NCBI RefSeq assembly: GCF_055900595.2
Contig: NZ_CM148325.1
DNA length: 64,000 nt
Reading direction: 5' to 3' (one strand)
Translations under genes and position numbers: made by a program
Notes under the pieces: generated by a model
Told to the model about the DNA's origin: nothing
Databases searched by the model: none
What the model saw: the letters and a program-made list of their open reading frames with translations, nothing else
Shown: positions 11,744 through 54,254 of the stretch, in pieces
Position numbering within the stretch: position 1 is the first letter of the stretch
How the letters are laid out: the number at the start of each line of letters is the position of its first letter

Positions 11744-14130
<2,387 letters not shown>

Positions 14131-37978: not shown

Positions 37979-38353
<375 letters not shown>

Positions 38354-38365
38354 ACCGCGTCAGGG

Positions 38366-38390
38366 TTGCCGGATGTCTCCATCCGGCAAC
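38366..38390. terminator. Shared hairpin terminator between convergent glnB and hmp
   Basis: GTTGCCGGATG-n-CATCCGGCAAC inverted repeat. Confidence 0.65.
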
Positions 38391-38396
38391 CTCAAA

Positions 38397-39587
38397 TCAC
38401 AGCACTTTATGCGGGCCAAAGCATTCGTAATGAATGTTTTCCTGTTTCACACCCAGGTCCACTAACTGTTTCGCGGCAAACTGCATGAAGCCAACCGGGC
38501 CGCAGAGATAGAACTGCATTGTCGGATCGCTGAACGCACCTTCCAGTTTGCTCAAATCCATCAGACCTTCGCTATCAAACTGACCTTTAGCGCGATCGGC
38601 TTCGCTTGGCTGACGATACCAGGTGTGCGCGGTAAAGCGCGGCAGTGCTTGCCCCAGTTCCTTAACTTCATCGGCAAAGGCGTGAACATCGCCATTTTCT
38701 GCCGCATGGAACCAGTTCACTTGTGCGGTGTGGCCTGCTTTTGCCAGCGTGTCGAGCATTGCCAGCATTGGCGTCTGGCCGACACCGGCAGAGATTAACG
38801 TCACTGGTGTGTCATCTGCGACAGCCATAAAGAAATCACCTGCCGGAGCGACCAGTTTCACGACATCGCCAACATTGGCGTGATTGTGCAGCCAGTTGGA
38901 TACCTGCCCGCCATCTTCGCGTTTCACCGCAATACGATAGCCTTTGCCATCCGGTTTGCGAGTCAAAGAGTACTGACGAATTTCCTGATGCGGGAAACCT
39001 TCCGGCTTCAGCCAGACGCCGAGATATTGCCCCGGACGGTATTCTGCCACTGCGCCACCGTCGACCGGCTCCAGTTCGAAGCTGGTGATAAGCGCGCTGC
39101 GCGGTGTTTTAGCCACAATGCGGAAATCGCGAGTACCTTCCCAGCCACCGGCTTTGCTGGCGTTTTCGTTATAGATTTCCGCCTCGCGATTGATAAATAC
39201 ATTAGCCAGTACGCCATAGGCTTTACCCCACGCGTCCAGCACTTCCTGGCCCGGGCTGAACATTTCGTCCAGCGTCGCCAACAGGTGTTCGCCGACAATG
39301 TTGTACTGTTCCGGTTTGATCTGGAAACTGGTGTGCTTCTGGGCGATTTTTTCTACCGCTGGCAGCAGCGCAGGCAGGTTTTCAATATTACTGGCGTAGG
39401 CGGCAATAGCGTTAAACAGGGCTTCACGTTGATCGCCATTACGCTGGTTACTCATGTTAAAAATTTCTTTGAGTTCTGGGTTATGAGTAAACATACGGTC
39501 GTAGAAATGGGCGGTTAACTTTGGCCCTGTTTCCACCAGTAAAGGGATGGTGGCTTTTACTGTAGCGATGGTTTGAGCGTCAAGCAT
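38397..39587 (-). CDS. hmp: Flavohemoglobin (nitric oxide dioxygenase)
   Basis: 396 aa from Met at 39587; N-terminal globin domain, C-terminal FAD/NAD-binding reductase. Confidence 0.95.
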
Positions 39588-39615
39588 ATGGTCTTCCTTT
39601 TTTTGCATCTTAATT

Positions 39616-39636
39616 GATGTATCTCAAATGCATCTT
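39616..39636 (-). promoter_or_regulatory. NsrR operator in the hmp promoter (AAGATGCATTTGAGATACATC palindrome)
   Basis: Inverted repeat matching the NsrR 11-1-11 consensus, about 30 bp upstream of hmp start. Confidence 0.75.
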
Positions 39637-39914
39637 ATAAAAAATAGCCCTGCAATGTAAATGGTTCTTTGGTGTTTTTCAGAAAGAATGTGATGAAGTG
39701 AAAAATTTGCATCACAAACCTGAAAAGAAATCCGTTTACGGTTGCAAGCTCTTTATTCTCCAAAGCCTTGCGCAGCCTGAAGGTAATCGTTTGCGTAAAT
39801 TCCTTTGTCAAGACCTGTTATCGCACAATGATTCGGTTATACTGTTCGCCGTTGTCCAACAGGACCGCCTATAAAGGCCGAAAATTTTATTGTTAGCTGA
39901 GTCAGGAGATGCGG

Positions 39915-41168
39915 ATGTTAAAGCGTGAAATGAACATTGCCGATTATGATGCCGAACTGTGGCAGGCTATGGAGCAGGAAAAAGTACGTCAGGAAGAGCA
40001 CATCGAACTGATCGCCTCCGAAAACTACACCAGCCCGCGCGTAATGCAGGCGCAGGGGTCTCAGCTGACCAACAAATATGCTGAAGGTTATCCGGGCAAA
40101 CGCTACTACGGCGGTTGCGAGTATGTTGATATCGTTGAACAACTGGCGATCGATCGCGCGAAAGAACTGTTCGGCGCTGACTACGCTAACGTCCAGCCGC
40201 ACTCCGGCTCCCAGGCGAACTTTGCGGTGTACACCGCGCTGCTGGAACCCGGCGACACCGTTCTGGGTATGAACCTGGCGCATGGCGGTCACCTGACTCA
40301 CGGTTCTCCGGTTAACTTCTCCGGTAAACTGTACAACATCGTTCCTTACGGTATCGATGCTACCGGTCATATCGACTACGCCGATCTGGAAAAACAAGCC
40401 AAAGAACACAAGCCGAAAATGATCATCGGTGGCTTCTCTGCATATTCCGGCGTGGTTGACTGGGCGAAAATGCGTGAAATCGCTGACAGCATCGGTGCTT
40501 ACCTGTTCGTTGATATGGCGCACGTTGCGGGACTGGTCGCTGCTGGCGTCTACCCGAACCCGGTTCCTCATGCTCACGTAGTGACTACCACCACTCACAA
40601 AACCCTGGCGGGTCCGCGCGGCGGCCTGATCCTGGCGAAAGGCGGTAGCGAAGAACTGTACAAAAAACTGAACTCTGCCGTTTTCCCTGGTGGTCAGGGC
40701 GGCCCGTTGATGCACGTAATCGCTGGTAAAGCGGTTGCTCTGAAAGAAGCGATGGAACCTGAGTTCAAAACTTACCAACAGCAGGTCGCGAAAAACGCTA
40801 AAGCGATGGTAGAAGTATTCCTGGAGCGCGGCTACAAAGTGGTTTCCGGCGGTACTGATAACCACCTGTTCCTGGTTGATCTGGTTGATAAAAACCTGAC
40901 CGGTAAAGAAGCTGACGCCGCTCTGGGCCGTGCTAACATCACCGTCAACAAAAACAGCGTACCGAACGATCCGAAGAGCCCGTTTGTAACCTCCGGTATT
41001 CGCGTGGGTACTCCGGCGATTACACGTCGTGGCTTTAAAGAAGCCGAAGCGAAAGAACTGGCTGGCTGGATGTGTGACGTGCTGGACAGCATCAATGATG
41101 AAGCCGTTATCGAGCGCATCAAAGGTAAAGTTCTCGACATCTGCGCACGTTACCCGGTTTACGCATAA
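39915..41168 (+). CDS. glyA: Serine hydroxymethyltransferase
   Basis: 417 aa; PLP-lysine motif [14 protein letters not shown]. Confidence 0.97.
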
Positions 41169-41200
41169 GCGAAACGGTGATTTGCTGACAATGTGCTCGT

Positions 41201-41318
41201 TGTTCATGCCGGATGCGGCGTGAACGCCTTATCCGGCCTACAAATTATTGCAAATTCAAGATATTGCAATCTCCGTGTAGGCCTGATAAGCGTAGCGCAT
41301 CAGGCAATTTTTCGTTTG
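41201..41318. repeat. REP/BIME (RIP-like) element, near-identical copy of the one at 10121..10238
   Basis: Same two inverted REP palindromes around an AT-rich spacer. Confidence 0.85.
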
Positions 41319-41365
41319 TGATCATCAAGGCTTCCTTAGGGAAGCCTTGTTACGTTATCGCGCCA

Positions 41366-42559
41366 TCAAATCTGTCGTAACTGCGCCTCAACATACAAAT
41401 AGCCAATCCCCAGCACCTGCTGTGCGCGGCTTAATTGCCCAAAGCCAATTTGCGTCGATTTCACGCTCGGTCCTTCGTCACGGTCGAACGGGTTAAATCC
41501 TGTCTGGCGAATAATGGAATTAAGCCAGTTCTCACCAAAGGCGCAGCTGCGACCATACAGCCAAATCTGATTAATATTGAGGATGTTGAGGAAGTTATAC
41601 AGACTCAAACCAATGGCGTTGGCACTGCGGTCAACCCAGCTGGTGATCCACGGTTCTCCACTCTGCCAGGCAGCGATTAATTGTGCGGTTGTCAATTTTT
41701 CAGGATCAAGCTGAGTATTCACCGGTTGTGATTTTAGCCATACTCGCGCCTGTTTTTTTAATGCGCTTAACGAGGCGACGGTTTCCAGGCAGCCATAATG
41801 TCCGCAGTCGCAGACGACACCATCCGGATTAACGATGGTGTGACCAATCTGTCCGCTACCATACAAACTGCCGCGATAAATTTGCTCGTTAATCACGAAC
41901 GACGAGCCAATACCGTAATCAACGTTGATCACGCAGAAATCCCGTCCTTGCGAATTATTTTGCCATTTCTCCGCCAGCGCCAGCATCACGCAGTCATTAT
42001 CGACCATCACCCGAATGCCCAGCTTCTCTTCCAGCAGATACTTCACCTCAACCGGCGTTGTCCACGGCGCTTGCGGCATGGTTTGCGACACGCCAGTCAC
42101 TGGATCAACCTGACCGTGGATTGCCAGCGCCAGGTTGATAGTACGGTCCGGCCACAGTTTACGATGACGATGCCAGCATTTTTCGATTTCGGACAACAGA
42201 GCCTGCGGTGTCGGTGCATCAATCTGAAAATACTCAAATTCGCCTTTCGGACTTAAACAGGCATTAGCGACCTGACACTCAATGCTGGTGGGCGTCACGT
42301 TCAGGCACAGCGTCCAGTCACCTTCCGGCGCGATCAGCCATGTACCGCTACTGTGCCCGCGCGTCTGGCTTTCATCGTCGATATTCACCACCCGTTTTTC
42401 GCTTTCCAGCTCCTGCAAAATATTACTGACTGCCGGAATCGAAATTTGCGCCAGCCGGGCCAGCGTTGATTTATTGGCGCGCTTTTGCCGGTACAGCAGT
42501 TCCAGAATCACGCATTTGTTATGGTGGCGAATCTGTTGATTATTAATGCAGGCTCTCAT
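41366..42559 (-). CDS. yphH: ROK-family (NagC/Mlc-like) transcriptional regulator YphH
   Basis: 397 aa; N-terminal HTH, ROK sugar-kinase-like fold with Cys/His cluster (CDCGHYGCLE). Confidence 0.85.
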   Translation of the reverse strand: MRACINNQQIRHHNKCVILELLYRQKRANKSTLARLAQISIPAVSNILQELESEKRVVNIDDESQTRGHSSGTWLIAPEGDWTLCLNVTPTSIECQVANACLSPKGEFEYFQIDAPTPQALLSEIEKCWHRHRKLWPDRTINLALAIHGQVDPVTGVSQTMPQAPWTTPVEVKYLLEEKLGIRVMVDNDCVMLALAEKWQNNSQGRDFCVINVDYGIGSSFVINEQIYRGSLYGSGQIGHTIVNPDGVVCDCGHYGCLETVASLSALKKQARVWLKSQPVNTQLDPEKLTTAQLIAAWQSGEPWITSWVDRSANAIGLSLYNFLNILNINQIWLYGRSCAFGENWLNSIIRQTGFNPFDRDEGPSVKSTQIGFGQLSRAQQVLGIGYLYVEAQLRQI

Positions 42560-42676
42560 CTTCACTAAACCTTGTTTAGTTAATTGCGTGATTATTCCGC
42601 GAAAACATTGCCAGATTGTTCAATACACTGCCACAAATCTTTTAATTCAGTATGTCTTGTTAATATTGAGGGCACC

Positions 42677-45600
42677 ATGACTCCAGTAAAAGTGTGGCAA
42701 GAGCGCGTTGAGATCCCGACTTATGAAACAGGTCCGCAGGATATACACCCTATGTTCCTGGAAAATCGCGTTTATCAGGGATCGTCCGGTGCGGTTTATC
42801 CCTACGGCGTGACCGATACGCTGAGCGAGCAGAAAGTCCTGAAATCCTGGCAAGCGGTGTGGCTGGAAAACGACTATATCAAAGTGATGATCCTGCCGGA
42901 GTTGGGCGGTCGGGTGCATCGCGCTTGGGATAAAGTGAAACAGCGCGATTTTGTCTATCACAATGAAGTCATTAAACCGGCGCTGGTGGGGCTGCTGGGG
43001 CCGTGGATCTCTGGCGGGATTGAGTTTAACTGGCCACAACACCATCGCCCAACCACCTTTATGCCCGTCGATTTCACCATCGAAGCCCATGAAGACGGCG
43101 CACAAACTGTGTGGGTTGGCGAAACGGAGCCGATGCACGGTTTACAGGTGATGACCGGTTTCACACTACGCCCTGACAGGGCGGCGCTGGAGATTGCCAG
43201 CCGCGTCTATAACGGCAATGCCACGCCGCGTCATTTCTTGTGGTGGGCCAACCCGGCAGTGAAAGGTGGCGAAGGGCATCAGAGCGTTTTCCCGCCGGAT
43301 GTAACGGCGGTGTTTGATCACGGCAAACGGGCTGTTTCAGCTTTCCCTATCGCTACCGGCACTTACTACAAAGTGGACTACTCCGCCGGAGTGGATATTT
43401 CTCGCTATAAAAATGTGCCAGTGCCGACTTCGTATATGGCCGAAAAATCGCAGTACGATTTTGTTGGCGCATGGTGTCACGATGAAGATGGCGGTTTGCT
43501 ACACGTTGCCAACCACCACATCGCGCCAGGTAAAAAACAGTGGAGCTGGGGACACAGTGAATTCGGCCAGGCGTGGGATAAGAGCCTGACCGACAATAAC
43601 GGCCCGTATATCGAACTGATGACGGGTATTTTTGCCGATAACCAGCCCGATTTTACCTGGCTTGATGCTTACGAAGAGAAGCGTTTCGAGCAGTATTTCC
43701 TGCCTTATCATTCTCTGGGCATGGTGCAAAACGCCTCCCGCGATGCGGTGATTAAACTCCAGCGTAGCGAGCGGGGGATTGAGTGGGGGCTGTATGCCAT
43801 CTCCCCGTTGAAAGGATGCCGCCTGGCGATCCGCGAAATCGGCAAATGCAACGCGTTGCTCGACGATGCCGTGGCTCTGACGCCAGCGACCGCCATTCAG
43901 GGCGTGTTGCATGGTATCAATCCTGACAGACTAACCATTGAACTCTCCGATGCCGATGGCAATATCGTACTGAGTTATCAGGAACATCAGCCACAAGAGT
44001 TGCCGTTGCCGGACGTCGCCAAAGCGCCACTGGCAGCACAAGAGATTACCAGTACAGATGAAGCCTGGTTTATCGGTCAGCATCTGGAGCAATATCATCA
44101 TGCCAGCCGTTCCCCCTTCGATTACTACCTGCGCGGCGTGGCGCTGGACCCGCTGGATTATCGCTGTAACCTGGCGTTGGCGATGCTGGAATATAACCGC
44201 GCCGACTTCCCGCAAACGGTGGCGTATGCCACTCAGGCGCTAAAACGCGCACATGCGTTGAACAAAAACCCGCAGTGCGGACAGGCGAGTTTAATTCGCG
44301 CCAGTGCTTACGAACGTCAGGGGCAATATCAACAAGCCGAAGAGGATTTCTGGCGTGCGGTCTGGAGCGGAAACAGTAAAGCCGGTGGCTATTATGGTCT
44401 GGCACGGCTGGCGGCGCGTAATGGTCACTTCGACGCGGGTCTGGATTTTTGCCAACAAAGTCTTCGCGCCTGCCCAACCAATCAGGAAGTGCTTTGCCTG
44501 CATAACCTGCTGCTGGTGTTAAGTGGTCGTCAGGACAACGCGCGTTTGCAGCGAGAGAAGTTGCTGCGTGATTATCCGCTGAACGCCACTCTGTGGTGGC
44601 TGAACTGGTTCGATGGTTGTAGCGAATCTGCCCTCGTACAGTGGCGAGGTCTGTGTCAGGGACGCGACGTTAACGCTCTGATGACCGCCGGGCAACTGAT
44701 TAACTGGGGCATGCCCGCTCTGGCGGCAGAGATGCTGAACGCACTGGACTGTCAGCGCACGCTACCGCTTTACCTGCAAGCCAGTTTGCTGCCAAAAGCT
44801 GAACGCGGAGAACTGGTCGCAAAAGCTATTGATGTCTTCCCGCAGTTTGTCCGTTTCCCTAATACGCTGGAAGAAGTGGCGGCGCTGGAGAGTATCGAAG
44901 AGTGCTGGTTTGCCCGGCATTTACTGGCCTGTTTCTACTACAACAAACGCAGCTACGGCAAAGCAATTGCCTTATGGCAACGTTGCGTTGAGATGTCGCC
45001 GGAGTTTGCCGACGGATGGCGTGGGCTGGCAATCCATGCGTGGAATAAGCAGCATGATTATGAACTGGCTGCGCGTTATCTTGATAATGCTTATCAACTT
45101 GCGCCGCAGGATGCACGTTTGCTATTCGAACGGGATTTGCTGGATAAGTTAACCGGTGCTGCACCAGAAAAACGTCTGGCGCGTCTGGAAGCTAATCTGG
45201 AAATCGCCCTGAAGCGTGATGACATGACCGCAGAATTGCTCAATTTGTGGCATCTCACTGGTCAGGCCGACAAAGCGGCAGAGATTCTCGCCACGCGTAA
45301 ATTCCATCCGTGGGAAGGCGGAGAAGGGAAAGTCACCAGTCAGTTTATCCTCAACCAGTTGTTACGCGCCTGGCAATACCTTGATGCCAGACAACCGCAG
45401 CAGGCCAGCGAACTGCTTCATGCCGCGCTGCACTATCCGGAGAATTTAAGCGAAGGCCGTTTACCGGGGCAAACTGACAACGACATCTGGTTCTGGCAGG
45501 CGATATGTGCCAAAGCCCAGGGCGATGAAACTGCAGCGACGCGTTGTTTACGTCTGGCGGCGACGGGTGATCGCACCATTAACATCCACAGTTATTACAA

Positions 45601-45958
45601 CGATCAACCGGTTGATTATCTCTTCTGGCAAGGGATGGCGTTGCGATTACTGGGCGAACAACAAACCGCACAGCAACTGTTTAGTGAAATGAAACAGTGG
45701 GCGCAAGAGATGGCGAAAACCAGTATCGAAGCGGATTTCTTTGCCGTCTCGCAGCCTGACTTGTTGTCGCTGTATGGCGATTTACAACAGCAGCATAAAG
45801 AAAAATGCCTGATGGTGGCGATGCTGGCGGCCGCGGGATTAGGCGAGATTGCGCAATACGAATCTGCTCGCGCTGAATTGACGGCGATTAATCCGGCCTG
45901 GCCGAAAGCGGCATTACTCATCACCGTGATGCCTTTTATTTTTAGCTACGTTCACTAA
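42677..45958 (+). CDS. yphG: Large uncharacterised protein YphG (1093 aa), helical-repeat (TPR-like) C-terminal half
   Basis: ORF with SD (GAGGG) upstream of Met 42677; divergent from yphH; K-12-like length. Confidence 0.8.
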   Translation: MTPVKVWQERVEIPTYETGPQDIHPMFLENRVYQGSSGAVYPYGVTDTLSEQKVLKSWQAVWLENDYIKVMILPELGGRVHRAWDKVKQRDFVYHNEVIKPALVGLLGPWISGGIEFNWPQHHRPTTFMPVDFTIEAHEDGAQTVWVGETEPMHGLQVMTGFTLRPDRAALEIASRVYNGNATPRHFLWWANPAVKGGEGHQSVFPPDVTAVFDHGKRAVSAFPIATGTYYKVDYSAGVDISRYKNVPVPTSYMAEKSQYDFVGAWCHDEDGGLLHVANHHIAPGKKQWSWGHSEFGQAWDKSLTDNNGPYIELMTGIFADNQPDFTWLDAYEEKRFEQYFLPYHSLGMVQNASRDAVIKLQRSERGIEWGLYAISPLKGCRLAIREIGKCNALLDDAVALTPATAIQGVLHGINPDRLTIELSDADGNIVLSYQEHQPQELPLPDVAKAPLAAQEITSTDEAWFIGQHLEQYHHASRSPFDYYLRGVALDPLDYRCNLALAMLEYNRADFPQTVAYATQALKRAHALNKNPQCGQASLIRASAYERQGQYQQAEEDFWRAVWSGNSKAGGYYGLARLAARNGHFDAGLDFCQQSLRACPTNQEVLCLHNLLLVLSGRQDNARLQREKLLRDYPLNATLWWLNWFDGCSESALVQWRGLCQGRDVNALMTAGQLINWGMPALAAEMLNALDCQRTLPLYLQASLLPKAERGELVAKAIDVFPQFVRFPNTLEEVAALESIEECWFARHLLACFYYNKRSYGKAIALWQRCVEMSPEFADGWRGLAIHAWNKQHDYELAARYLDNAYQLAPQDARLLFERDLLDKLTGAAPEKRLARLEANLEIALKRDDMTAELLNLWHLTGQADKAAEILATRKFHPWEGGEGKVTSQFILNQLLRAWQYLDARQPQQASELLHAALHYPENLSEGRLPGQTDNDIWFWQAICAKAQGDETAATRCLRLAATGDRTINIHSYYNDQPVDYLFWQGMALRLLGEQQTAQQLFSEMKQWAQEMAKTSIEADFFAVSQPDLLSLYGDLQQQHKEKCLMVAMLAAAGLGEIAQYESARAELTAINPAWPKAALLITVMPFIFSYVH

Positions 45959-45975
45959 ACACTATTAACTGTAAT

Positions 45976-46010
45976 ATTTGAGCGGCACGCGCTGCCGCTC
46001 ACGCTCAAAT
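45976..46010 (+). terminator. Hairpin terminator between yphG and yphF
   Basis: TTTGAGCGGCA-n-TGCCGCTCACGCTCAAA inverted repeat in AT-rich context. Confidence 0.55.
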
Positions 46011-46054
46011 AATTAAAATAAGCCGTTGTAAATAAAAACCCTACAGGAGGCACT

Positions 46055-47038
46055 ATGCCTAAAAAAATGAGAACAACCCGTAATCTATTATTAATGGCTA
46101 CGCTATTAGGTAGCACACTATTTGCCAACGCTGCGGAAAAAGAAATGACCATTGGTGCAATATACCTTGATACCCAGGGATATTACGCTGGAGTGCGCCA
46201 GGGCGTTCAGGATGCGGCAAAAGATTCTTCAGTACAGGTACAGTTAATTGAAACTAACGCCCAGGGCGATATTTCGAAAGAAAGTACCTTTGTTGATACC
46301 CTCGTGGCGCGTAATGTCGATGCCATTATTTTGTCGGCAGTGTCTGAAAATGGCAGTAGCCGCACCGTTCGCCGCGCCAGTGAGGCGGGTATTCCGGTGA
46401 TTTGCTACAACACCTGTATTAATCAAAAGGGTGTCGATAAATATGTCTCGGCATATCTGGTTGGCGATCCGCTGGAATTTGGTAAAAAACTGGGTAACGC
46501 TGCCGCCGATTATTTTATTGCTAACAAAATTGACCAGCCGAAAATTGCTGTCATCAATTGCGAAGCCTTTGAAGTTTGTGTGCAACGACGTAAAGGGTTT
46601 GAAGAAGTATTAAAAGCCCGCGTTCCCGGCGCGAAAATTGTCGCTAATCAGGAAGGGACTGTTTTAGATAAAGCGATTTCTGTTGGTGAAAAACTGATTA
46701 TCTCCACGCCAGATCTCAATGCCATTATGGGGGAATCGGGTGGAGCGACACTCGGCGCGGTAAAAGCGGTACGTAATCAAAATCAGGCTGGAAAAATTGC
46801 CGTTTTCGGTTCGGATATGACCACTGAAATTGCACAGGAACTGGAAAATAACCAGGTGCTGAAAGCGGTAGTGGATATTTCCGGTAAGAAAATGGGCAAT
46901 GCTGTTTTCGCGCAAACATTGAAGGTTATCAATAAACAAGCCGACGGTGAAAAAGTGATTCAGGTGCCAATCGATCTCTATACCAAAACGGAAGACGGTA
47001 AACAGTGGCTGGCAACGCACGTTGATGGTCTGCCCTAA
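46055..47038 (+). CDS. yphF: ABC transporter periplasmic sugar-binding protein (RbsB-like) YphF
   Basis: 327 aa; signal peptide MPKKMRTTRNLLLMATLLGSTLFANA; periplasmic binding protein type 1 fold. Confidence 0.85.
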   Translation: MPKKMRTTRNLLLMATLLGSTLFANAAEKEMTIGAIYLDTQGYYAGVRQGVQDAAKDSSVQVQLIETNAQGDISKESTFVDTLVARNVDAIILSAVSENGSSRTVRRASEAGIPVICYNTCINQKGVDKYVSAYLVGDPLEFGKKLGNAAADYFIANKIDQPKIAVINCEAFEVCVQRRKGFEEVLKARVPGAKIVANQEGTVLDKAISVGEKLIISTPDLNAIMGESGGATLGAVKAVRNQNQAGKIAVFGSDMTTEIAQELENNQVLKAVVDISGKKMGNAVFAQTLKVINKQADGEKVIQVPIDLYTKTEDGKQWLATHVDGLP

Positions 47039-47060
47039 TCGCTGATTCGCAGAGGTCCCT

Positions 47061-48572
47061 ATGTTCACGGCAACAGAGGCAGTTCCGGTAGCAAAAGTGG
47101 TGGCAGGAAATAAGCGTTACCCCGGTGTCGTTGCGCTGGATAACGTTAACTTCACGCTCAATAAAGGCGAAGTTCGCGCGCTGTTAGGTAAAAACGGTGC
47201 GGGAAAATCGACCCTCATTCGAATGCTTACCGGTAGCGAACGTCCGGATAGCGGTGATATCTGGATTGGCGAGACGCGACTGGAAGGCGACGAAGCTACG
47301 CTGACTCGCCGTGCCGCTGAACTGGGGGTACGCGCGGTTTATCAGGAATTAAGTCTGGTGGAGGGGCTGACGGTGGCGGAAAACCTCTGCCTCGGTCAGT
47401 GGCCCCGCCGCAACGGCATGATTGATTACCTGCAAATGGCGCAGGATGCCCAACGTTGCTTACAGGCGCTGGGCGTTGACGTTAGTCCTGAACAACTTGT
47501 TTCGACACTAAGCCCGGCGCAAAAGCAACTGGTGGAAATTGCGCGGGTGATGAAAGGCGAGCCGCGCGTGGTCATTCTTGATGAACCTACCAGTTCGCTT
47601 GCCAGTGCGGAAGTTGAACTGGTGATCAGCGCTGTGAAAAAGATGTCGGCACTGGGCGTGGCGGTGATTTATGTCAGCCACCGGATGGAAGAAATTCGCC
47701 GCATTGCCTCCTGTGCCACCGTTATGCGCGATGGTCAGGTGGCGGGCGATGTGATGCTCGAAAACACCTCTACGCATCATATTGTGTCGCTAATGCTCGG
47801 GCGCGATCACGTTGATATTGCGCCGGTTGCCCCTCAGGAAATTATGGATCAAGCCGTGCTGGAAGTCCGTGCGTTACGCCATAAGCCCAAGCTGGAGGAT
47901 ATCAGCTTTACGCTACGTCGCGGCGAAGTGCTCGGCATTGCTGGCCTGCTGGGGGCAGGGCGCAGTGAATTGCTGAAGGCGATTGTTGGGCTGGAGACGT
48001 ATGAACAGGGCGAAATTGTTATCAACGGCGAGAAAATCACGCGCCCCGATTACGGCGAGATGCTGAAACGCGGCATTGGCTATACGCCAGAAAACCGCAA
48101 AGAAGCGGGGATCATTCCCTGGCTGGGCGTTGACGAAAATACGGTACTGACCAATCGGCAAAAAATCAGCGCCAACGGTGTGCTGCAATGGTCCACCATC
48201 CGCCGCCTGACCGAAGAGGTGATGCAGCGGATGACGGTCAAGGCAGCCAGTAGCGAAACGCCTATTGGCACGCTTTCTGGCGGCAATCAGCAAAAAGTGG
48301 TGATCGGTCGTTGGGTCTATGCCGCCAGCCAGATTTTATTGCTCGACGAGCCAACGCGCGGCGTCGATATCGAAGCCAAACAGCAGATTTACCGTATTGT
48401 CCGCGAGCTGGCTGCCGAAGGGAAAAGCGTGGTGTTTATCTCCAGTGAAGTGGAGGAGTTGCCGCTGGTGTGCGACCGCATCCTGTTATTACAGCACGGT
48501 ACGTTCTCGCAGGAGTTTCACTCGCCGGTCAATGTGGATGAGCTGATGTCCGCCATTCTGTCTGTGCACTGA
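47061..48572 (+). CDS. yphE: Sugar ABC transporter ATP-binding protein YphE (two fused ABC cassettes)
   Basis: 503 aa; Walker A GKNGAGKST plus second cassette LLGAGRSEL and signature LSGGNQQK. Confidence 0.9.
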   Translation: MFTATEAVPVAKVVAGNKRYPGVVALDNVNFTLNKGEVRALLGKNGAGKSTLIRMLTGSERPDSGDIWIGETRLEGDEATLTRRAAELGVRAVYQELSLVEGLTVAENLCLGQWPRRNGMIDYLQMAQDAQRCLQALGVDVSPEQLVSTLSPAQKQLVEIARVMKGEPRVVILDEPTSSLASAEVELVISAVKKMSALGVAVIYVSHRMEEIRRIASCATVMRDGQVAGDVMLENTSTHHIVSLMLGRDHVDIAPVAPQEIMDQAVLEVRALRHKPKLEDISFTLRRGEVLGIAGLLGAGRSELLKAIVGLETYEQGEIVINGEKITRPDYGEMLKRGIGYTPENRKEAGIIPWLGVDENTVLTNRQKISANGVLQWSTIRRLTEEVMQRMTVKAASSETPIGTLSGGNQQKVVIGRWVYAASQILLLDEPTRGVDIEAKQQIYRIVRELAAEGKSVVFISSEVEELPLVCDRILLLQHGTFSQEFHSPVNVDELMSAILSVH

Positions 48573-48596
48573 TGAATTTTACCGAGGAACCTGAAG

Positions 48597-49595
48597 ATGT
48601 CTGCTTCGTCATTACCATTGCCGCAGGGCAAGAGCGTCTCGCTCAAACAATTTGTCAGTCGCCATATTAATGAGATCGGTTTGCTGGTGGTAATCGCCAT
48701 TCTTTATCTGGTCTTCTCCCTGAATGCGCCTGGCTTTATCTCATTGAATAACCAAATGAACGTGCTGCGCGATGCTGCCACCATCGGGATCGCCGCCTGG
48801 GCGATGACGCTGATTATTATCTCCGGTGAAATTGATGTCAGCGTTGGACCGATGGTGGCTTTTGTCTCGGTGTGCCTGGCATTTTTGCTGCAATTTAACG
48901 TTCCGCTGGCGATTGCTTGTCTGCTGGTGTTGCTGTTAGGCGCGCTGATGGGGACGCTGGCCGGCGTGCTGCGCGGCGTGTTTAACGTGCCCAGTTTCGT
49001 TGCCACGCTGGGGCTGTGGAGCGCCCTGCGCGGAATGGGGCTGTTTATGACTAACGCCCTGCCAGTGCCGATTGACGAAAACGAGGTACTGGACTGGCTG
49101 GGGGGACAATTTCTCGGTGTGCCAGTATCCGCGCTGATCATGATGGTGTTGTTTGCGCTGTTTGTGTTCATCAGCCGCAAAACCGCCTTCGGGCGCTCGG
49201 TTTTTGCTGTTGGCGGTAATGCGACGGCAGCGCAGTTGTGCGGTATCAACGTTCGTCGGGTGCGCATTCTTATTTTTACCCTTTCGGGATTATTAGCGGC
49301 GGTGACCGGCATTTTGCTGGCAGCTCGCCTCGGTTCTGGTAACGCAGGTGCGGCAAACGGTCTGGAGTTTGACGTCATCGCTGCGGTCGTGGTCGGCGGT
49401 ACGGCACTTTCCGGCGGTCGCGGTTCCTTGTTCGGTACGTTGCTTGGTGTGCTGGTGATTACGCTAATCGGTAACGGTCTGGTGTTGCTCGGGATTAACT
49501 CTTTTTTCCAGCAGGTGGTGCGCGGCGTCATCATCGTGGTGGCGGTTCTGGCGAATATCTTGCTGACCCAGCGAAGCAGTAAAGCGAAACGCTAA
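48597..49595 (+). CDS. yphD: Sugar ABC transporter permease YphD
   Basis: 332 aa polytopic membrane protein of the RbsC/AraH permease type. Confidence 0.88.
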   Translation: MSASSLPLPQGKSVSLKQFVSRHINEIGLLVVIAILYLVFSLNAPGFISLNNQMNVLRDAATIGIAAWAMTLIIISGEIDVSVGPMVAFVSVCLAFLLQFNVPLAIACLLVLLLGALMGTLAGVLRGVFNVPSFVATLGLWSALRGMGLFMTNALPVPIDENEVLDWLGGQFLGVPVSALIMMVLFALFVFISRKTAFGRSVFAVGGNATAAQLCGINVRRVRILIFTLSGLLAAVTGILLAARLGSGNAGAANGLEFDVIAAVVVGGTALSGGRGSLFGTLLGVLVITLIGNGLVLLGINSFFQQVVRGVIIVVAVLANILLTQRSSKAKR

Positions 49596-49660
49596 ACCTT
49601 AACGCCCCTGGCGCGGGTGCGGCAGGGATGAAAATTAATCGTATTGTTAATGAGGGAATT

Positions 49661-50722
49661 ATGAAAACGATGCTGGCAGCTTATTTACCAGGAAATTCGA
49701 CCGTCGATCTGCGGGAAGTTGCGGTGCCGACACCGGGGATTAACCAGGTACTGATTAAAATGAAATCCTCCGGGATTTGCGGAAGCGATGTCCACTATAT
49801 CTATCATCAACACCGCGCCACAGCGGCGGCTCCCGATAAACCGTTATACCAGGGATTTATCAACGGTCATGAACCGTGCGGGCAAATTGTGGCGATGGGG
49901 CAAGGTTGTCGCCATTTTAAAGAGGGCGACCGCGTGCTGGTGTATCACATTTCTGGCTGTGGTTTTTGCCCGAACTGCCGTCGCGGTTTTCCTATCTCTT
50001 GTACTGGCGAAGGAAAAGCCGCTTACGGCTGGCAGCGTGACGGCGGTCATGCCGAATACCTGCTGGCGGAAGAAAAAGATCTGATCCTCCTGCCGGACGC
50101 GCTGAGCTATGAAGATGGTGCGTTTATCAGTTGCGGCGTTGGTACAGCGTATGAAGGGATTTTGCGCGGCGAAGTTTCCGGCAGTGATAACGTGCTGGTG
50201 GTCGGTCTGGGGCCGGTCGGGATGATGGCGATGATGCTGGCGAAAGGTCGCGGTGCAAAAAGGATCATCGGCGTTGATATGCTGCCGGAACGTCTGGCGA
50301 TGGCGAAACAGTTAGGGGTGATGGATCACGGCTATTTAGCAACGACCGAAGGTCTGCCGCAGATTATCGCCGAACTCACCCACGGTGGCGCGGATGTTGC
50401 GCTCGATTGTTCCGGTAATGCCGCAGGTCGCTTACTGGCGTTGCAATCCACTGCTGACTGGGGACGGGTGGTTTACATCGGGGAAACCGGAAAAGTGGAG
50501 TTCGAGGTTAGCGCTGATCTGATGCATCATCAACGGCGGATTATTGGCTCCTGGGTGACCAGTCTGTTCCATATGGAAAAATGCGCCCACGATTTAACGG
50601 ACTGGAAACTGTGGCCGCGTAATGCCATTACCCATCGCTTCTCACTGGAACAGGCAGGAGATGCCTATGCGCTGATGGCGAGCGGTAAATGCGGGAAAGT
50701 TGTGATTAACTTCCCGGATTAA
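49661..50722 (+). CDS. yphC: Zinc-dependent alcohol/polyol dehydrogenase YphC (MDR family)
   Basis: 353 aa from Met 49661; catalytic zinc motif GHEPCG and structural zinc Cys cluster (CGFCPNCRRG). Confidence 0.88.
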   Translation: MKTMLAAYLPGNSTVDLREVAVPTPGINQVLIKMKSSGICGSDVHYIYHQHRATAAAPDKPLYQGFINGHEPCGQIVAMGQGCRHFKEGDRVLVYHISGCGFCPNCRRGFPISCTGEGKAAYGWQRDGGHAEYLLAEEKDLILLPDALSYEDGAFISCGVGTAYEGILRGEVSGSDNVLVVGLGPVGMMAMMLAKGRGAKRIIGVDMLPERLAMAKQLGVMDHGYLATTEGLPQIIAELTHGGADVALDCSGNAAGRLLALQSTADWGRVVYIGETGKVEFEVSADLMHHQRRIIGSWVTSLFHMEKCAHDLTDWKLWPRNAITHRFSLEQAGDAYALMASGKCGKVVINFPD

Positions 50723-50733
50723 GGAGTCAGCGG

Positions 50734-51606
50734 ATGACCATCTATACCTTATCTCACGGGCCGCTAAAGCTGGACGTTTCTGACCGGGGCGGCGTCATCG
50801 AAGGCTTCTGGCGTGACGCGACGCCGCTCTTACGTCCCGGTAAAAAAAGCGGTGTGGCAACCGATGCCTCTTGTTTTCCGCTGGTGCCGTTTGCAAACCG
50901 GGTGAGCGGCAACCATTTTGTCTGGCAGGGGCGTGAGTATCAACTGCAACCGAATATTGAATGGGATGCGCACTATCTGCACGGCGACGGCTGGCTGGGC
51001 GAGTGGCAATGTGTCTCGCGCAGCGATGAAAGCTTGTGTCTGGTATATGAACATCGCACAGGTATTTATCAGTATCGGGTAAGTCAGGCGTTTCATTTAA
51101 CGGCAGATACGCTGACGGTGACGCTCTCTGTCACCAACCAAGGGACAGAGACGCTGCCATTTGGTACCGGCTGGCATCCTTATTTTCCGTTGTCACCACA
51201 AACGCGGATTCAGGCGCAGGCGAGCGGTTACTGGCTGGAGCGGGAGCAGTGGCTGGCGGGTGAGTTTTGCGAGCAGCTACCGCAGGCGCTGGATTTCAAC
51301 CAGTTCGCGCCGTTGCCGCACCAGTGGGTGAACAATGGCTTTGCCGGATGGAATGGTCAGGCCCGCATCGAGCAGCCGCAGGAGGGTTACGCTATCACTA
51401 TGGAAACGATGCCGCCCGCGCCGTGCTATTTCATCTTTGTCTCCGACCCCGCGTTTGATAAAGGGTACGCGTTTGATTTCTTCTGTCTGGAGCCGATGAG
51501 TCATGCGCCGGATGACCATCATCGCCCGGAAGGGGGTGATCTCATTGCGCTTGCGCCGGGGGAATCAACAACCTCAGAGATGTCGTTGCGGGTGGAGTTG
51601 CTGTAA
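50734..51606 (+). CDS. yphB: Aldose 1-epimerase-family protein YphB
   Basis: 290 aa; operon position after yphC. Confidence 0.8.
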   Translation: MTIYTLSHGPLKLDVSDRGGVIEGFWRDATPLLRPGKKSGVATDASCFPLVPFANRVSGNHFVWQGREYQLQPNIEWDAHYLHGDGWLGEWQCVSRSDESLCLVYEHRTGIYQYRVSQAFHLTADTLTVTLSVTNQGTETLPFGTGWHPYFPLSPQTRIQAQASGYWLEREQWLAGEFCEQLPQALDFNQFAPLPHQWVNNGFAGWNGQARIEQPQEGYAITMETMPPAPCYFIFVSDPAFDKGYAFDFFCLEPMSHAPDDHHRPEGGDLIALAPGESTTSEMSLRVELL

Positions 51607-51616
51607 TTTATAAAAT

Positions 51617-51705
51617 GCCTGATGCGACGCTTGCCGCGTCTTATCAGGCCTACAATCGGTGTTGGAACGGTAGGCCGGATCTGGCGTTCACGCCGCATCC
51701 GGCAT
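51617..51705. repeat. REP/BIME element (two inverted REP palindromes) between yphB and yphA
   Basis: GCCTGATGCGACGCTTGCCGCGTCTTATCAGGCCTACA ... GTAGGCCGGATCTGGCGTTCACGCCGCATCCGGCA. Confidence 0.85.
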
Positions 51706-51710
51706 CTTTC

Positions 51711-52133
51711 CTAACGTCGATCGAGAGAAATCGCTCCAGGCCCGGTAATTGCCAACAGCAGGAATGCGCCAGCGATACTGACATTCTTCCAGAAATTAAT
51801 CATATTTGGCCCAACCGCATCGCCGGTCATATCCCAGTAATGGTGACCAATCACCGCCGTACCCAGCGTGTAGAAAATAAACAGCACCGCCAGCGGACGG
51901 GTGAAAAAGCCAAGCACGATTAAAATCGCGGCGGGCACTTCCATAACTACCGCAATAATCGCTGCCAGCATCGGCATTGGCGCGCCCAGCGAGGCCATAT
52001 ATTGGACCGTACCGTCAAAGCCCATCATTTTGGGAAAACCAAAAATAATGAAAATTAAGACCACGGCGATACGGGCAATTAATAACAAAACGGGGCGGGC
52101 AGCACCAAAATCAAAATAACGTAGTGTGTTCAT
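51711..52133 (-). CDS. yphA: DoxX-family inner membrane protein YphA
   Basis: 140 aa from Met at 52133; four hydrophobic segments. Confidence 0.8.
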
Positions 52134-52229
52134 AACCAATCCCTTTGCAAGATAATGTGATTTAAACGTAATACACACTCTGGTACCTCGCCACGCCCCA
52201 GGCGTTGAGATATTCGCTAATTATCCTGG

Positions 52230-53441
<1,212 letters not shown>

Positions 53442-54254
53442 TTAAAGATCCAGCCCAGCCGCTACGTGGCGAATGCCGCGAATCGCTAAACCCGCATCAG
53501 CGTTGATCATCACACCGCTTAATGCGCGATTATTGCGCCGCGATGCCAACATCACATACGGACCCGTAAAATCCGCCGGTTGCGGGAAAAATTGCAGCGG
53601 TAATATGGCGGCAATTTTCTCCGGCGTCAGAGACTGCATTATCGAGGTTTCACTTTGCCCGAGCGCCTGTGGGCCGCGTAGATCGCTGGCCATACCGCAT
53701 GGCCCAACGCCATTCACCCGTACTTTAGGTGCCAGTTCATAGGCCAGTTGGCGAATAAGTCCGGTTGCGGCATGTTTACTGGCGGTGTACAGCGGGCCAC
53801 CGCCGCCGGGATACCAGGCAGCATTGGACAGGGTGAAAATCATGCTGCCTTCACTGGCGATTAACGCCGGAGCGCAGGCTTTTGCGCCCAGCAGGTAACC
53901 GAGTACGTTGACGTTAAACAGCTCGTGGAAGCCGGTTTCGAGCGTCTCTGCGGGAGTATTAACCAGTGAGGCATTGTGATCCCAGATGCCCGCATTGCCG
54001 ATAAAACAATCCAGCTTGCCAGAACGAGTCAGGATCTGATCGACCGCGCGTTGATAATCGGCATAGCAGGTCACGTTACCTTCCACCGCCAGAATATGTT
54101 CGCCAAATCGCTGACGCAGACTGGCGACTTTTGCCGCCGACAGTTCCAGCGTGGCAACCTGCGCACCTTCTTCGATAAATCGCTCGACCAGTGCCAGTCC
54201 TAATCCCGATCCGCCACCAGTAATAAAGATGGACTCGTTATGCAGATCGCTCAT
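53442..54254 (-). CDS. hcaB: 2,3-dihydroxy-2,3-dihydrophenylpropionate dehydrogenase (SDR family)
   Basis: 270 aa; SDR motif [11 protein letters not shown] and YxxxK. Confidence 0.92.

Follow-up and report, generated by a model that had tools for sequence, protein, structure and literature searches.

Which carbohydrate does the yphH/yphGFEDCB locus of Escherichia coli serve, and what does its largest product, YphG, do to that compound? The locus is an already known y-gene cluster that lies as an intact region of the E. coli chromosome at positions 41366-52133 of the window, i.e., the whole stretch of 64,000 nucleotides that was analyzed, and its RefSeq gene names are yphH, G, F, E, D, C, B, and A. 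A previous sequence-only reading had described a ROK-family regulator, a protein of 1093 amino acids, a sugar-type ABC importer, a dehydrogenase, and a mutarotase-like protein, and the order, strands, and sizes of these ORFs (including the 1093 aa of YphG) are all present as described, while the families assigned to them were borne out by profile, fold, and PDB matches. Its statement that the system has no assigned substrate also stands: None of the curated NCBIfam models scores above its cut-off for the proteins of the locus, no relative of YphG in AFDB or PDB carries a functional name, our literature search found no published substrate, and a 2023 review still lists yphFED as a “putative” sugar ABC transporter (PMC10305011). 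The genes are arranged as follows:

41366-42559, minus strand: yphH, ROK-family repressor, 397 aa, with N-terminal HTH and ROK zinc motif
42677-45958, plus strand: yphG, 1093 aa, ATG preceded by the Shine-Dalgarno sequence GAGGG
46055-47038, plus strand: yphF, periplasmic sugar-binding protein, 327 aa, signal peptide MPKKMRTTRNLLLMATLLGSTLFANA
47061-48572, plus strand: yphE, fused double-cassette ABC ATPase, 503 aa (NCBIfam AraG, 455 bits)
48597-49595, plus strand: yphD, single CUT2-type permease, 332 aa (RbsC 225 bits, AraH 221)
49628-50722, plus strand: yphC, Zn-dependent medium-chain dehydrogenase (MDR), 364 aa (profile and PDB matches)
50734-51606, plus strand: yphB, aldose 1-epimerase family, 290 aa (identical to PDB 3NRE, E 2.6e-197)
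51711-52133, minus strand: yphA, DoxX-family membrane protein, convergent, with REP elements between yphA and yphB

At least 80% of this stretch is carried by 5370 of 5426 complete E. coli genomes (approximately 99%). The yph genes are strongly conserved under strong purifying selection, and the dN/dS values of 0.006 to 0.155 for all seven genes (compared with E. albertii and two Enterobacteriaceae) mark them as functional genes rather than chance ORFs. Intergenic gaps from yphG to yphB are short (11-96 bp), which is consistent with a single yphGFEDCB operon. In relatives, yphA is sited elsewhere or absent beside the operon, and it probably stands outside the system; the sequence-only reading had drawn its boundaries to take in this gene and left it unmentioned.

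The regulator YphH is Mlc- and NagC-like, with alignments to both proteins that span residues 9-341. It carries the ROK zinc motif GHxxxxxxGxxCxCGxxGCxE as GHTIVNPDGVVCDCGHYGCLE, and since no DxGxT ATP/kinase motif was found in it, the protein is a regulator and not a kinase. As previously described, its gene is divergent from yphG (minus versus plus strand), and the combination of HTH, zinc motif, divergent orientation, and adjacent palindrome places it among ROK repressors of the NagC/Mlc/XylR type. A divergent ROK gene adjoins the YphG ortholog in 12 of 13 loci of Enterobacterales, Aeromonas, and Photobacterium, and YphH has been labeled the “third uncharacterized ROK repressor” (PMC4288165). 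Three noncoding elements accompany the genes:

42562-42591, no strand assigned: conserved intergenic block TCACTAAAC-CTT-GTTTAGT-TAATTGCGTGA, from an alignment of 11 Enterobacterales/Aeromonas intergenic regions
45952-45973, no strand assigned: TCACTAAAC-ACTA-TTAACTGTA, putative second copy of an operator-like sequence that overlaps the stop codon of yphG
45980-46000, plus strand: GC-rich intercistronic hairpin GAGCGGCA-CGCGC-TGCCGCTC between yphG and yphF

The first block sits immediately upstream of the yphH start codon, and the exact 17-bp palindrome ACTAAAC-N3-GTTTAGT at 42564-42580 (chance expectation of 0.13 per window with up to 2 mismatches allowed) is a candidate YphH operator. The second copy is kept in E. 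albertii and Enterobacter sp. BIGb0383. An equivalent, species-specific hairpin is found 3' of yphG in every Enterobacterales examined, and a conserved motif CCYTACA(A/G) at 46039-46045 lies upstream of the ribosome-binding site of the next gene.

YphG itself is composed of three parts:

42677-43711, plus strand: residues 1-345, N-terminal DUF5107 domain with aldose-1-epimerase (mutarotase) fold
43745-43981, plus strand: residues ~357-435, second small all-beta domain (secondary structure of the AF2 model)
44054-45958, plus strand: residues ~460-1093, C-terminal all-helical TPR solenoid

A longer ORF with a TTG start at 42584 would add 31 residues that are not signal-like. The Pfam profile search matched DUF5107 (PF17128; i-E 2.3e-55, residues 39-324) and TPR_16 (residues 499-560 and 754-813), and YphG thereby has the DUF5107-TPR architecture. 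Its earlier portrayal as a helical-repeat protein is right for the TPR solenoid but not for residues 1-345 with their aldose-1-epimerase fold. Nor does the protein lack recognizable catalytic motifs as had been suggested, given that most of the family-invariant polar residues lie in the N-terminal domain and that the helical part contains conserved loops that are not helical. The family comprises 3927 cluster representatives at E<=1e-3, mostly of ~1050-1150 aa, and around 25 polar residues of YphG are invariant or nearly so among 79 sequences of 25-74% identity. These include E64, N65, D85, K86, K100, E116, N118, H122, H123, R124, N179, N192, H215, K286, K287, D306, Y311, E313, N322, Q323, and D325 as well as F876 and E880 in the helical part. 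Family-invariant motifs of the N-terminal domain are GGIEFNWPQHHRP, FLWWAN, PGKKxWxWG, and GPYxELMxG..DNQPDF, and long conserved loops of the solenoid read FHPWEGGEG (876-884), PENLSEGR (921-928), YYNDQPVDY (973-981), and DFFAVSxPDL (1020-1029); the second beta domain is poorly conserved in family alignments. Together with a dN/dS of 0.05-0.08, this pattern of sequence conservation points to an enzyme. No signal peptide was found in YphG orthologs, which are cytoplasmic, and the FxxWEG loops of the helical domain recur in distant secreted homologs with CBM9 or in PULs. The structural-genomics entry PDB 5CD6 (BDI_1685 of Parabacteroides distasonis, a “TPR-domain containing protein”) is only 21% identical to YphG and, at 580 aa, lacks the C-terminal half of its solenoid with the FxxWEG and PxNL loops; a search for its function or a publication on it returned nothing, and the only paper found to mention DUF5107 lists it in a table.

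Full-length cytoplasmic orthologs of YphG with ~40% identity are found in Bacteroidota, Bacillota, and Gammaproteobacteria. They are usually accompanied by a transporter, which is either one conserved XylE-like sugar porter or a CUT2-type ABC system, and by a regulator of the AraC or ROK type; a GH2 enzyme is frequently encoded nearby as well. The conserved core consists of YphG, a monosaccharide transporter, and a regulator. Loci of Aeromonas and Serratia comprise ROK, YphG, MFS, and YphB genes without the ABC system or YphC, and many Bacteroidota loci are reduced to AraC plus MFS-YphG. The regulator type varies by lineage (ROK, AraC, or LacI), which speaks against YphG as a non-enzymatic sugar-sensing scaffold whose mutarotase-like domain would sense the ligand while the TPR part binds YphH, the transporter, or another partner: The regulator switches while YphG holds ~40% identity over its full length. 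This idea seems most improbable to us also because yphG heads the induced operon and not the transcript of the regulator, because a sugar-binding fold with so many closely set invariant polar residues typically points to catalysis, and because secreted paralogs occur in PULs.

What is transported may be narrowed to a class. YphFED is a complete importer, as the sequence-only reading had claimed, and its signal-peptide binding protein, fused two-cassette ATPase, and BPD_transp_2 permease make it a CUT2 system of the ribose/arabinose/galactose type. YphF matches AlsB, MglB, and RbsB, and YphE matches AraG (over residues 17-487), XylG (435 bits), and AlsA (423 bits), all under the equivalog cut-offs; with every such cut-off unmet, NCBIfam assigns no substrate to YphFED. 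Orthologs at another locus, L005, match Peripla_BP_4, ABC_tran (twice), and BPD_transp_2 in Pfam. A sugar-porter MFS or CUT2 ATPase lies within 4 genes of the YphG ortholog in 52 of 87 loci, and the 35 with neither type at this distance include several that are either Bacillota loci with CUT1 ABC systems or short contigs. The partner MFS forms one orthologous group (45-58% identity between Citrobacter and Bacteroidota) with 38-40% identity to XylE and 30-36% to GalP and AraE, and two loci (L010 and L011) have both the ABC system and the MFS. Since these transporter classes carry free monosaccharides, a glycoside substrate is disfavored unless its aglycone is very small, and the closer similarity of the MFS to XylE than to GalP or AraE keeps a pentose or another hexose in play.

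The sequence-only reading had envisaged a sugar or polyol pathway, and while the importer upholds the sugar, the polyol part hangs on YphC, which most orthologous clusters lack. With YphC as the key catabolic enzyme of a polyol (or of a sugar that is reduced to a polyol), YphG would be an auxiliary, non-defining component. Of all proteins of the operon, YphC is indeed conserved best, with 99.5% identity to E. albertii and a dN/dS of 0.006, and xylitol, sorbitol, and threonine dehydrogenases are among its nearest solved relatives (best PDB matches of ~130 bits). CUT2 systems can also carry polyols. Yet YphC-like genes occur near YphG in just 7 of 87 loci, and the clusters of Aeromonas, Serratia, Citrobacter, and Hafnia lack YphC but retain YphG, the transporter, and YphB. 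YphC moreover scores below every curated family cut-off, so that it reaches no specific equivalog and its matches place it at the level of the medium-chain dehydrogenase superfamily (Tdh 171 bits with a cut-off of 380; IolM 169 with a cut-off of 450), and the mutarotase YphB would be left without a role. A polyol as the defining substrate therefore appears very doubtful, and a free or lightly modified aldose is more likely because most orthologous clusters lack YphC and share the core of YphG and a monosaccharide transporter. YphB is a member of the aldose 1-epimerase family by sequence and structure, its orthologs match Pfam Aldose_epim, and a YphB-like gene follows the YphG ortholog in 8 of 13 Enterobacterales/Aeromonas loci and in L005. 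YphC and YphB are lineage-specific accessories.

The neighbors of YphG suggest a link to galactose. A GH2 enzyme related to BT4151 (815 bits), which is an exo-beta-1,4-galactosidase (PMC8002723), is encoded in 27 of 87 YphG loci, and further neighbors are GH35 (9 loci), GalM (6 loci), GH42, and alpha-galactosidase-like genes. The neighboring GH2 is secreted in Bacteroidota and cytoplasmic in Bacillota and Photobacterium, where a MelB-type glycoside symporter lies beside it. With the exception of Photobacterium, GH2 and GH35 neighbors are absent from all Enterobacterales loci. On these associations, the substrate is probably of galactose type.

What chemistry would YphG perform? All characterized proteins that are equally close in fold are mutarotases, so that plain anomerization is the structural null hypothesis, and the beta-sandwich of the YphG N-terminus is that of the aldose 1-epimerase family. 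YphG might then be a large plain mutarotase, e.g., for beta-D-galactose from retaining beta-galactosidases, with MFS/ABC-YphG as an “import plus anomerization” module that feeds the Leloir pathway or another part of housekeeping metabolism and with the TPR part for oligomerization or docking. We consider this rather unlikely, since a true mutarotase is already encoded beside YphG (YphB in the same operon, an adjacent GalM in 6 loci) and would make it redundant. The mutarotase family (GalM, YeaD, YihR, and YphB; PDB 1L7J, 2HTA, 3NRE, and 3MWX) has no sequence likeness to YphG at the Pfam or profile level: Pfam Aldose_epim (PF01263) does not match YphG even at E<=10, and hhalign gives a probability of 0.1-7%. 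The invariant YphG motifs HHR, PGKK, and NQPD also differ from those of these mutarotases, and the position of their catalytic His is probably a Gln in YphG, where the conserved Q202 (YQxxFPP versus HpyFnl) aligned to it in three hhalign runs, albeit at negligible confidence; by manual alignment, E313 is a plausible counterpart of their catalytic Glu. Finally, YphG is three to four times the size of a mutarotase due to the fused extra beta domain and TPR solenoid, and plain anomerization leaves unexplained both 630 conserved helical residues with invariant loops and the persistence of these loops (FxxWEG) in secreted CBM9 paralogs in PULs.

Neither sequence nor fold searches matched YphG to a family of glycosidases, lyases, or isomerases, and its catalytic domain likewise matched none of the glycoside hydrolase or polysaccharide lyase families of CAZy. 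Nevertheless, ring opening is already within reach of a mutarotase active site, and an anomer-specific aldose isomerase or epimerase could continue from there via an enediol at C1/C2, with YphB providing the correct anomer and YphC reducing or oxidizing the ketose or polyol so formed. H122-H123-R124 and E313, all conserved, may resemble the acid/base sets of cofactor-free isomerases, YphC-like dehydrogenases recur near YphG, and a PfkB kinase adjoins one distant homolog. The fuc and rha operons likewise pair a mutarotase with an enzyme (FucU with FucI, RhaM with RhaA), a logic that the yph operon would mirror. However, every abundant natural aldose already has an isomerase in these organisms, the neighborhoods show no conserved kinase, Photobacterium has a separate AraA/FucI-like isomerase beside YphG, and secreted family members fit poorly with the isomerization of free sugars, which makes this chemistry distinctly improbable.

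We therefore favor, with a probability of about 0.4, an operon under ROK repression that scavenges one neutral carbohydrate of monosaccharide size and in which YphG acts at the anomeric carbon. YphH would repress yphGFEDCB at the palindromes, and YphFED would import the compound, with the conserved XylE-like proton symporter as an additional route in the closest relatives. YphG would be the pathway-defining cytoplasmic, cofactor-free enzyme, built as a modified aldose-1-epimerase domain that is capped by the TPR solenoid supplying conserved loops. Preferably, it would release or rearrange a galactose-type compound to yield a free common aldose in a single anomeric form, and such compounds may arise where GH2, GH35, and GH42 enzymes of beta-galactosidase type degrade galactans and pectin. 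YphB would then equilibrate the anomers, in the E. coli lineage YphC would serve as an accessory that carries out an NAD(P)-dependent redox step, and housekeeping pathways would complete catabolism. More tentatively, the DUF5107-TPR proteins may form a new family of carbohydrate-active enzymes in which a remodeled mutarotase domain and TPR loops (E313, E880) share an active site for the cleavage or rearrangement of a small molecule containing galactose or of a reducing-end sugar, with cytoplasmic YphG-type members behind a dedicated sugar porter and secreted CBM9/PUL members acting on oligosaccharides.

This layout resembles the E. coli modules for galactose (MglBAC/GalP with GalM), arabinose (AraFGH/AraE), and xylose (XylFGH/XylE), where a high-affinity CUT2 ABC system and a sugar-porter MFS serve one monosaccharide, a repressor or activator of their own controls them, and the genes for the transporters are accompanied by one for a mutarotase. 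Unlike these, the yph system has no kinase, isomerase, or transferase genes, its defining enzyme is an uncharacterized DUF5107-TPR protein, and its partner MFS, which E. coli lost or never had, is an orthologous group separate from XylE, GalP, and AraE. Other precedents are the yih sulfoquinovose operon (transporter, glycosidase YihQ, and mutarotase YihR) and the pairing of LacZ with GalM, where an imported small glycoside is cut in the cytoplasm and a mutarotase equilibrates the released anomer. By analogy, this logic would explain the presence of YphB with YphG, but YihQ belongs to GH31 whereas YphG matches no glycoside hydrolase family, and, apart from the MelB-like gene of Photobacterium, the yph transporters are of the monosaccharide type rather than the GPH type.

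Our analysis supplies a conserved two-gene module (MFS plus YphG) as well as candidates for the catalytic residues, for the operators, and, in a short list, for the sugar. The YphG family, in which no member is characterized, spans thousands of sequence clusters from polysaccharide degraders of gut, soil, and marine habitats, and solving YphG would take six to seven genes off the E. coli “y-ome” and give a function to a large DUF. If the DUF5107-TPR proteins are a new enzyme family, the yph operon would be the route by which E. coli cross-feeds on a compound that Bacteroidota produce when they degrade pectin or galactan. The function of YphG could thus reveal new chemistry on a mutarotase scaffold or a missing step in the bacterial use of galactan- and pectin-derived sugars, including cross-feeding of gut Enterobacteriaceae.

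The sequence-only reading had described a locus in which a ROK-type regulator gene, yphH, diverges from yphGFEDCB, and this locus is real: its ORFs are open, the RefSeq names match, and pairwise comparison with E. albertii and two Enterobacteriaceae gave dN/dS values of 0.006-0.155 for all seven genes, with the strongest constraint on yphC and the weakest on yphB. Open ORFs together with dN/dS values in this range show that these yph genes are functional. RefSeq annotation places glyA and the hca genes at the borders of the locus, and the intergenic gaps of 11-96 bp from yphG to yphB fit a single yphG-yphB operon divergent from yphH. REP/BIME-type palindromic units (GCCGGATGCGGCGTGAACGCCTTATCCGGCCTAC and relatives) are found on both sides.

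Genes and repeats of the yph locus; each gene is an open ORF under its RefSeq name
41209-41306, REP/BIME-type units between glyA and yphH
41366-42559, minus strand, yphH
42677-45958, plus strand, yphG
46055-47038, plus strand, yphF
47061-48572, plus strand, yphE
48597-49595, plus strand, yphD
49628-50722, plus strand, yphC
50734-51606, plus strand, yphB
51617-51704, REP/BIME-type units between yphB and yphA
51711-52133, minus strand, yphA

The window is E. coli chromosomal DNA, and most complete E. coli genomes (5370/5426) align to at least 80% of 41366-52133. Identity over this stretch is 95-99% in 4992 of the 5426 and at least 99% in only 8; the best-matching genomes are mostly human isolates, one of them from stool in Kenya. 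The scarcity of such close matches, together with the 97% identity of the window's YphG to the main E. coli protein cluster, suggests that the window represents an uncommon lineage or a divergent allele of the locus.

None of the eight proteins from YphH to YphA reached the cut-off of a curated NCBIfam model, and the gene families assigned earlier by eye proved correct at family level in NCBIfam and PDB comparisons. YphH is a ROK protein, its residues 9-341 aligning to both Mlc and NagC; it possesses the zinc motif of ROK proteins but no ATP-binding motif, which rules out a kinase and argues for a repressor. The importer comprises a periplasmic binding protein with signal peptide (YphF), an ATPase with two fused cassettes (YphE), and a permease of RbsC/AraH type (YphD). 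YphB is identical to 3NRE, a structural-genomics entry named "aldose 1-epimerase", and YphA, a DoxX-type membrane protein on the opposite strand past the REP cluster, is probably unrelated to the yph system. YphC is an MDR Zn-dependent dehydrogenase with matches at superfamily level only (Tdh, IolM, and xylitol and sorbitol dehydrogenases); that the operon encodes a polyol pathway is highly unlikely in our assessment.

The earlier claim that no substrate had been assigned agrees with the literature on the yph genes, PF17128, IPR033396, 5CD6, and DUF5107, in which we found neither substrate nor function. YphH has been termed "a third uncharacterized ROK repressor" (PMC4288165) and is counted among transcription factors of unknown function (PMC9308461), while a 2023 review enters yphFED as a "putative" sugar ABC transporter (PMC10305011). 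The sole use found for yphG is as a Klebsiella PCR marker (PMC10569728), and the sole paper found to mention DUF5107 has it as a table entry (PMC8163842). In a proteomics study, YphF rose 3- to 4.6-fold on levoglucosan versus fructose (PMC8753852), but MalE, XylF, UgpB, MglA, and YtfQ increased along with it, as did many CRP-dependent binding proteins. The rise therefore looks like general catabolite derepression, not like induction specific to levoglucosan, and we did not count it as evidence for a substrate. The yph locus and its orphan status are already known, and there is nothing unusual about its transporter, regulator, dehydrogenase, or mutarotase; YphG is the part that departs from known kinds, with a familiar fold in a very widespread, uncharacterised architecture.

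Pfam recognizes DUF5107 (PF17128) at residues 39-324 of YphG (2.3e-55) and gives weak TPR matches. An AlphaFold2 model built from an alignment of 79 sequences with 25-74% identity to YphG (pLDDT 95.5, pTM 0.93) comprises a beta domain at 5-345, a second at 357-435, and an all-helical part at 460-1092. The initial view of YphG as a helical-repeat protein with no obvious catalytic motif is incomplete: in the model the N-terminal domain is a mutarotase fold with invariant polar residues, nearer to real mutarotases than to CAZyme accessory domains. Across the 79 sequences, E64, N65, D85, K86, K100, E116, N118, H122, H123, and R124 are invariant or nearly so in this domain, as are N179, N192, H215, K286, K287, D306, Y311, E313, N322, Q323, and D325. 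The helical part has conserved W563, F876, and E880 and long non-helical loops (FHPWEGGEG, PENLSEGR, YYNDQPVDY, and DFFAVSxPDL). Beside this conservation we rate a role of YphG as a non-catalytic sensor as most improbable.

By fold alone, plain mutarotation is the null hypothesis for YphG. Neither Pfam nor hhalign made the N-terminal domain a member of Aldose_epim by sequence; when the DUF5107 domain was compared by hhalign with 21 aligned YphB/GalM-type sequences, local, global, and segment modes all failed to reach significance. Three hhalign runs placed the mutarotase HpyFnl motif with the catalytic His opposite YQxxFPP, which would set the conserved Q202 at the His, with negligible confidence, and manual alignment set Y-I-E313-L-M of YphG opposite mutarotase c-L-E-p with the catalytic Glu; these possible equivalences are leads, not results. 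A role of YphG as an anomer-specific aldose isomerase or epimerase appears quite unlikely to us.

Around YphG orthologues, ORFs were called and neighbours classified in 87 loci, with representatives checked against NCBIfam and Pfam.

Gene types within four genes of a YphG orthologue
Sugar-porter MFS, 44/87 loci
CUT2 ATPase, 9/87 loci
Sugar-porter MFS or CUT2 ATPase, 52/87 loci
AraC-type regulator whose N-terminal domain aligns to AraC too, 42/87 loci
ROK regulator, 13/87 loci
GH2 related to BT4151 (815 bits, full length), 27/87 loci
GH35, 9/87 loci
YphB-like epimerase, 9/87 loci
YphC-like dehydrogenase, 7/87 loci
GalM-type epimerase, 6/87 loci

YphG is thus tightly tied across phyla to one sugar porter or a CUT2 importer plus a sugar-responsive regulator and is frequently found near beta-galactosidase-type exo-glycosidases, while a true mutarotase or Zn-dependent dehydrogenase is only occasionally present. 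Among 150 partners on the same strand, the Pfam counts were Sugar_tr 30, GH2 22-24, GH35 6, sulfatase 6, GDSL 6, Aldose_epim 4, and GH42 4, and no kinase or aldolase is conserved nearby. In its minimal form the neighbourhood reads AraC | MFS-YphG (many Bacteroidota) or ROK | YphG-MFS-YphB (Aeromonas, Serratia, Budvicia, Hafnia, and Citrobacter). The partner MFS forms one orthologous group: each of the 46 copies resembles E. coli XylE (about 38-40% identity) more than it does AraE or GalP (30-36%), and the Citrobacter copy shares 45-58% identity with those of Bacteroidota. Both yphGFEDCB and this MFS occur in the loci most closely related to the E. coli operon outside Escherichia, two loci in which the XylE-like gene directly follows yphB and precedes hcaT (L010:18982-20397 and L011:19130-20566). 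At the counterpart position in E. coli (51607-51710) there are REP elements, followed by yphA and the hca cluster; with the MFS absent after yphB, E. coli has only the ABC route of a system that has dual transporters elsewhere.

[quoted passage not shown] Its GH2 relatives near YphG carry a signal peptide or lipobox in Bacteroidota and neither in Bacillota or Photobacterium. In Photobacterium pectinilyticum, the YphG orthologue lies with a ROK gene, a MelB-type symporter, and a cytoplasmic BT4151-like GH2 (L016:13420-22329). The MelB-type glycoside symporter beside the GH2 scores 564 bits, above cut-off, and the cluster also has a RhaT-family transporter and a divergent AraA/FucI-superfamily isomerase for which no PDB relative was found. 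The cluster is compact, unstudied, and apparently devoted to glycoside catabolism, and it may tell more than any other setting about what YphG does. L-rhamnose was set aside as substrate because RhaT-like, RhaEW, and BT4151 links occur in few loci only, and 3,6-anhydrogalactose or other marine sugars because they leave members in Enterobacterales and gut Bacillota unexplained.

An alignment of 11 yphH-yphG spacers reveals a block that is conserved between E. coli and species as distant as Aeromonas, TCACTAAAC-N3/4-GTTTA(C/G)T-(G)TATTGCGTGA (42562-42591), which in E. coli contains a perfect 17-bp palindrome, ACTAAAC-CTT-GTTTAGT (chance expectation 0.13 matches per window at up to 2 mismatches). 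We propose this palindrome as a candidate YphH operator. A one-mismatch copy inside the nadB coding sequence (ACTAAACACGGTTTGGT, 14104-14120) is probably due to chance; two matches occurred in 1/100 shuffles. A second operator-like copy, TCACTAAAC-ACTA-TTAACTGTA (45952-45973), overlaps the stop codon of yphG, not only in E. coli but also in E. albertii and an Enterobacter. Next come a GC hairpin (45980-46000) and, just upstream of the yphF RBS, a CCYTACA(A/G) motif (46039-46045). In each of the Enterobacterales examined, yphG is followed by a hairpin and the CCYTACA motif, be the next gene yphF or the MFS, and 45952-46045 may be an intercistronic element through which the transporter portion of the mRNA is controlled or processed on its own. 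A terminator-like hairpin lies within the 3' end of yphG (45910-45933). RNAalifold found no meaningful consensus structure in the spacer downstream of yphG, as the hairpins differ from species to species and were misaligned. Scans for consensus promoters and terminators did not exceed shuffled expectation, Rfam had no match in 38000-54000, and no CRP site in the yphH-yphG spacer was convincing by eye.

The DUF5107 family numbers 3927 representatives of 50%-identity clusters at E<=1e-3 and about 900 at E<=1e-30, mostly of about 1050-1150 aa, and AFDB50 gives the relatives of YphG no name other than "DUF5107 domain-containing protein". In species-representative genomes, full-length relatives spanning residues 1 to about 1070 at about 40% identity turned up in Sphingobacteriia, Flavobacteriia, Bacteroidales, Paenibacillus, Lachnospiraceae, Ruminiclostridium, and Photobacterium, as well as in Enterobacterales and Aeromonas. 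No signal peptide was found in these full-length orthologues; YphG itself is conserved, cytoplasmic, and built of two domains. DUF5107 proteins at a greater distance from YphG are secreted, one with a CBM9 and one with an Exo_endo_phos (endonuclease/exonuclease/phosphatase) domain, and others lie in PULs with GH16 and sulfatases or with GH28, GH3, and esterases (fusions and PUL settings exemplified by proteins P0265 and P0239 and loci L091 and L092). By eye, these retain the HHR, PGKK, YxELM, NQPD, and FxxWEG motifs. Secreted members with CBM9 or in PULs indicate that the family is also active outside the cytoplasm, presumably on oligo- or polysaccharides.

Taken together, we consider it probable (roughly 0.8) that the yph operon serves to scavenge a sugar and that YphG is the key enzyme in this. 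We infer a neutral, monosaccharide-sized carbohydrate as substrate; it most likely has galacto configuration, being of D-Gal, L-Ara, or D-Fuc type or else a small derivative. YphG would be the defining enzyme and act at the anomeric carbon, cofactor-free as judged from the same motifs kept in secreted relatives; YphB would equilibrate anomers of its substrate or product, and YphC would add a lineage-specific redox step. A role of YphG as lactonase after YphC was set aside because YphB is still kept in clusters without YphC. With no kinase or aldolase conserved, housekeeping pathways would complete catabolism. Our preferred reading, a tentative one, is that YphG is more than a mutarotase. The null hypothesis of plain mutarotation, natural as it is for this fold, seems unlikely given the true mutarotase encoded alongside, the missing canonical sequence signature, the invariant loops of the helical domain, and the secreted, CBM-bearing, PUL-encoded relatives. 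DUF5107-TPR proteins might, though this is doubtful, even constitute a CAZyme-like family of a new kind, in which mutarotase and TPR parts together form the active site and which would mediate cross-feeding on galactan or pectin products.
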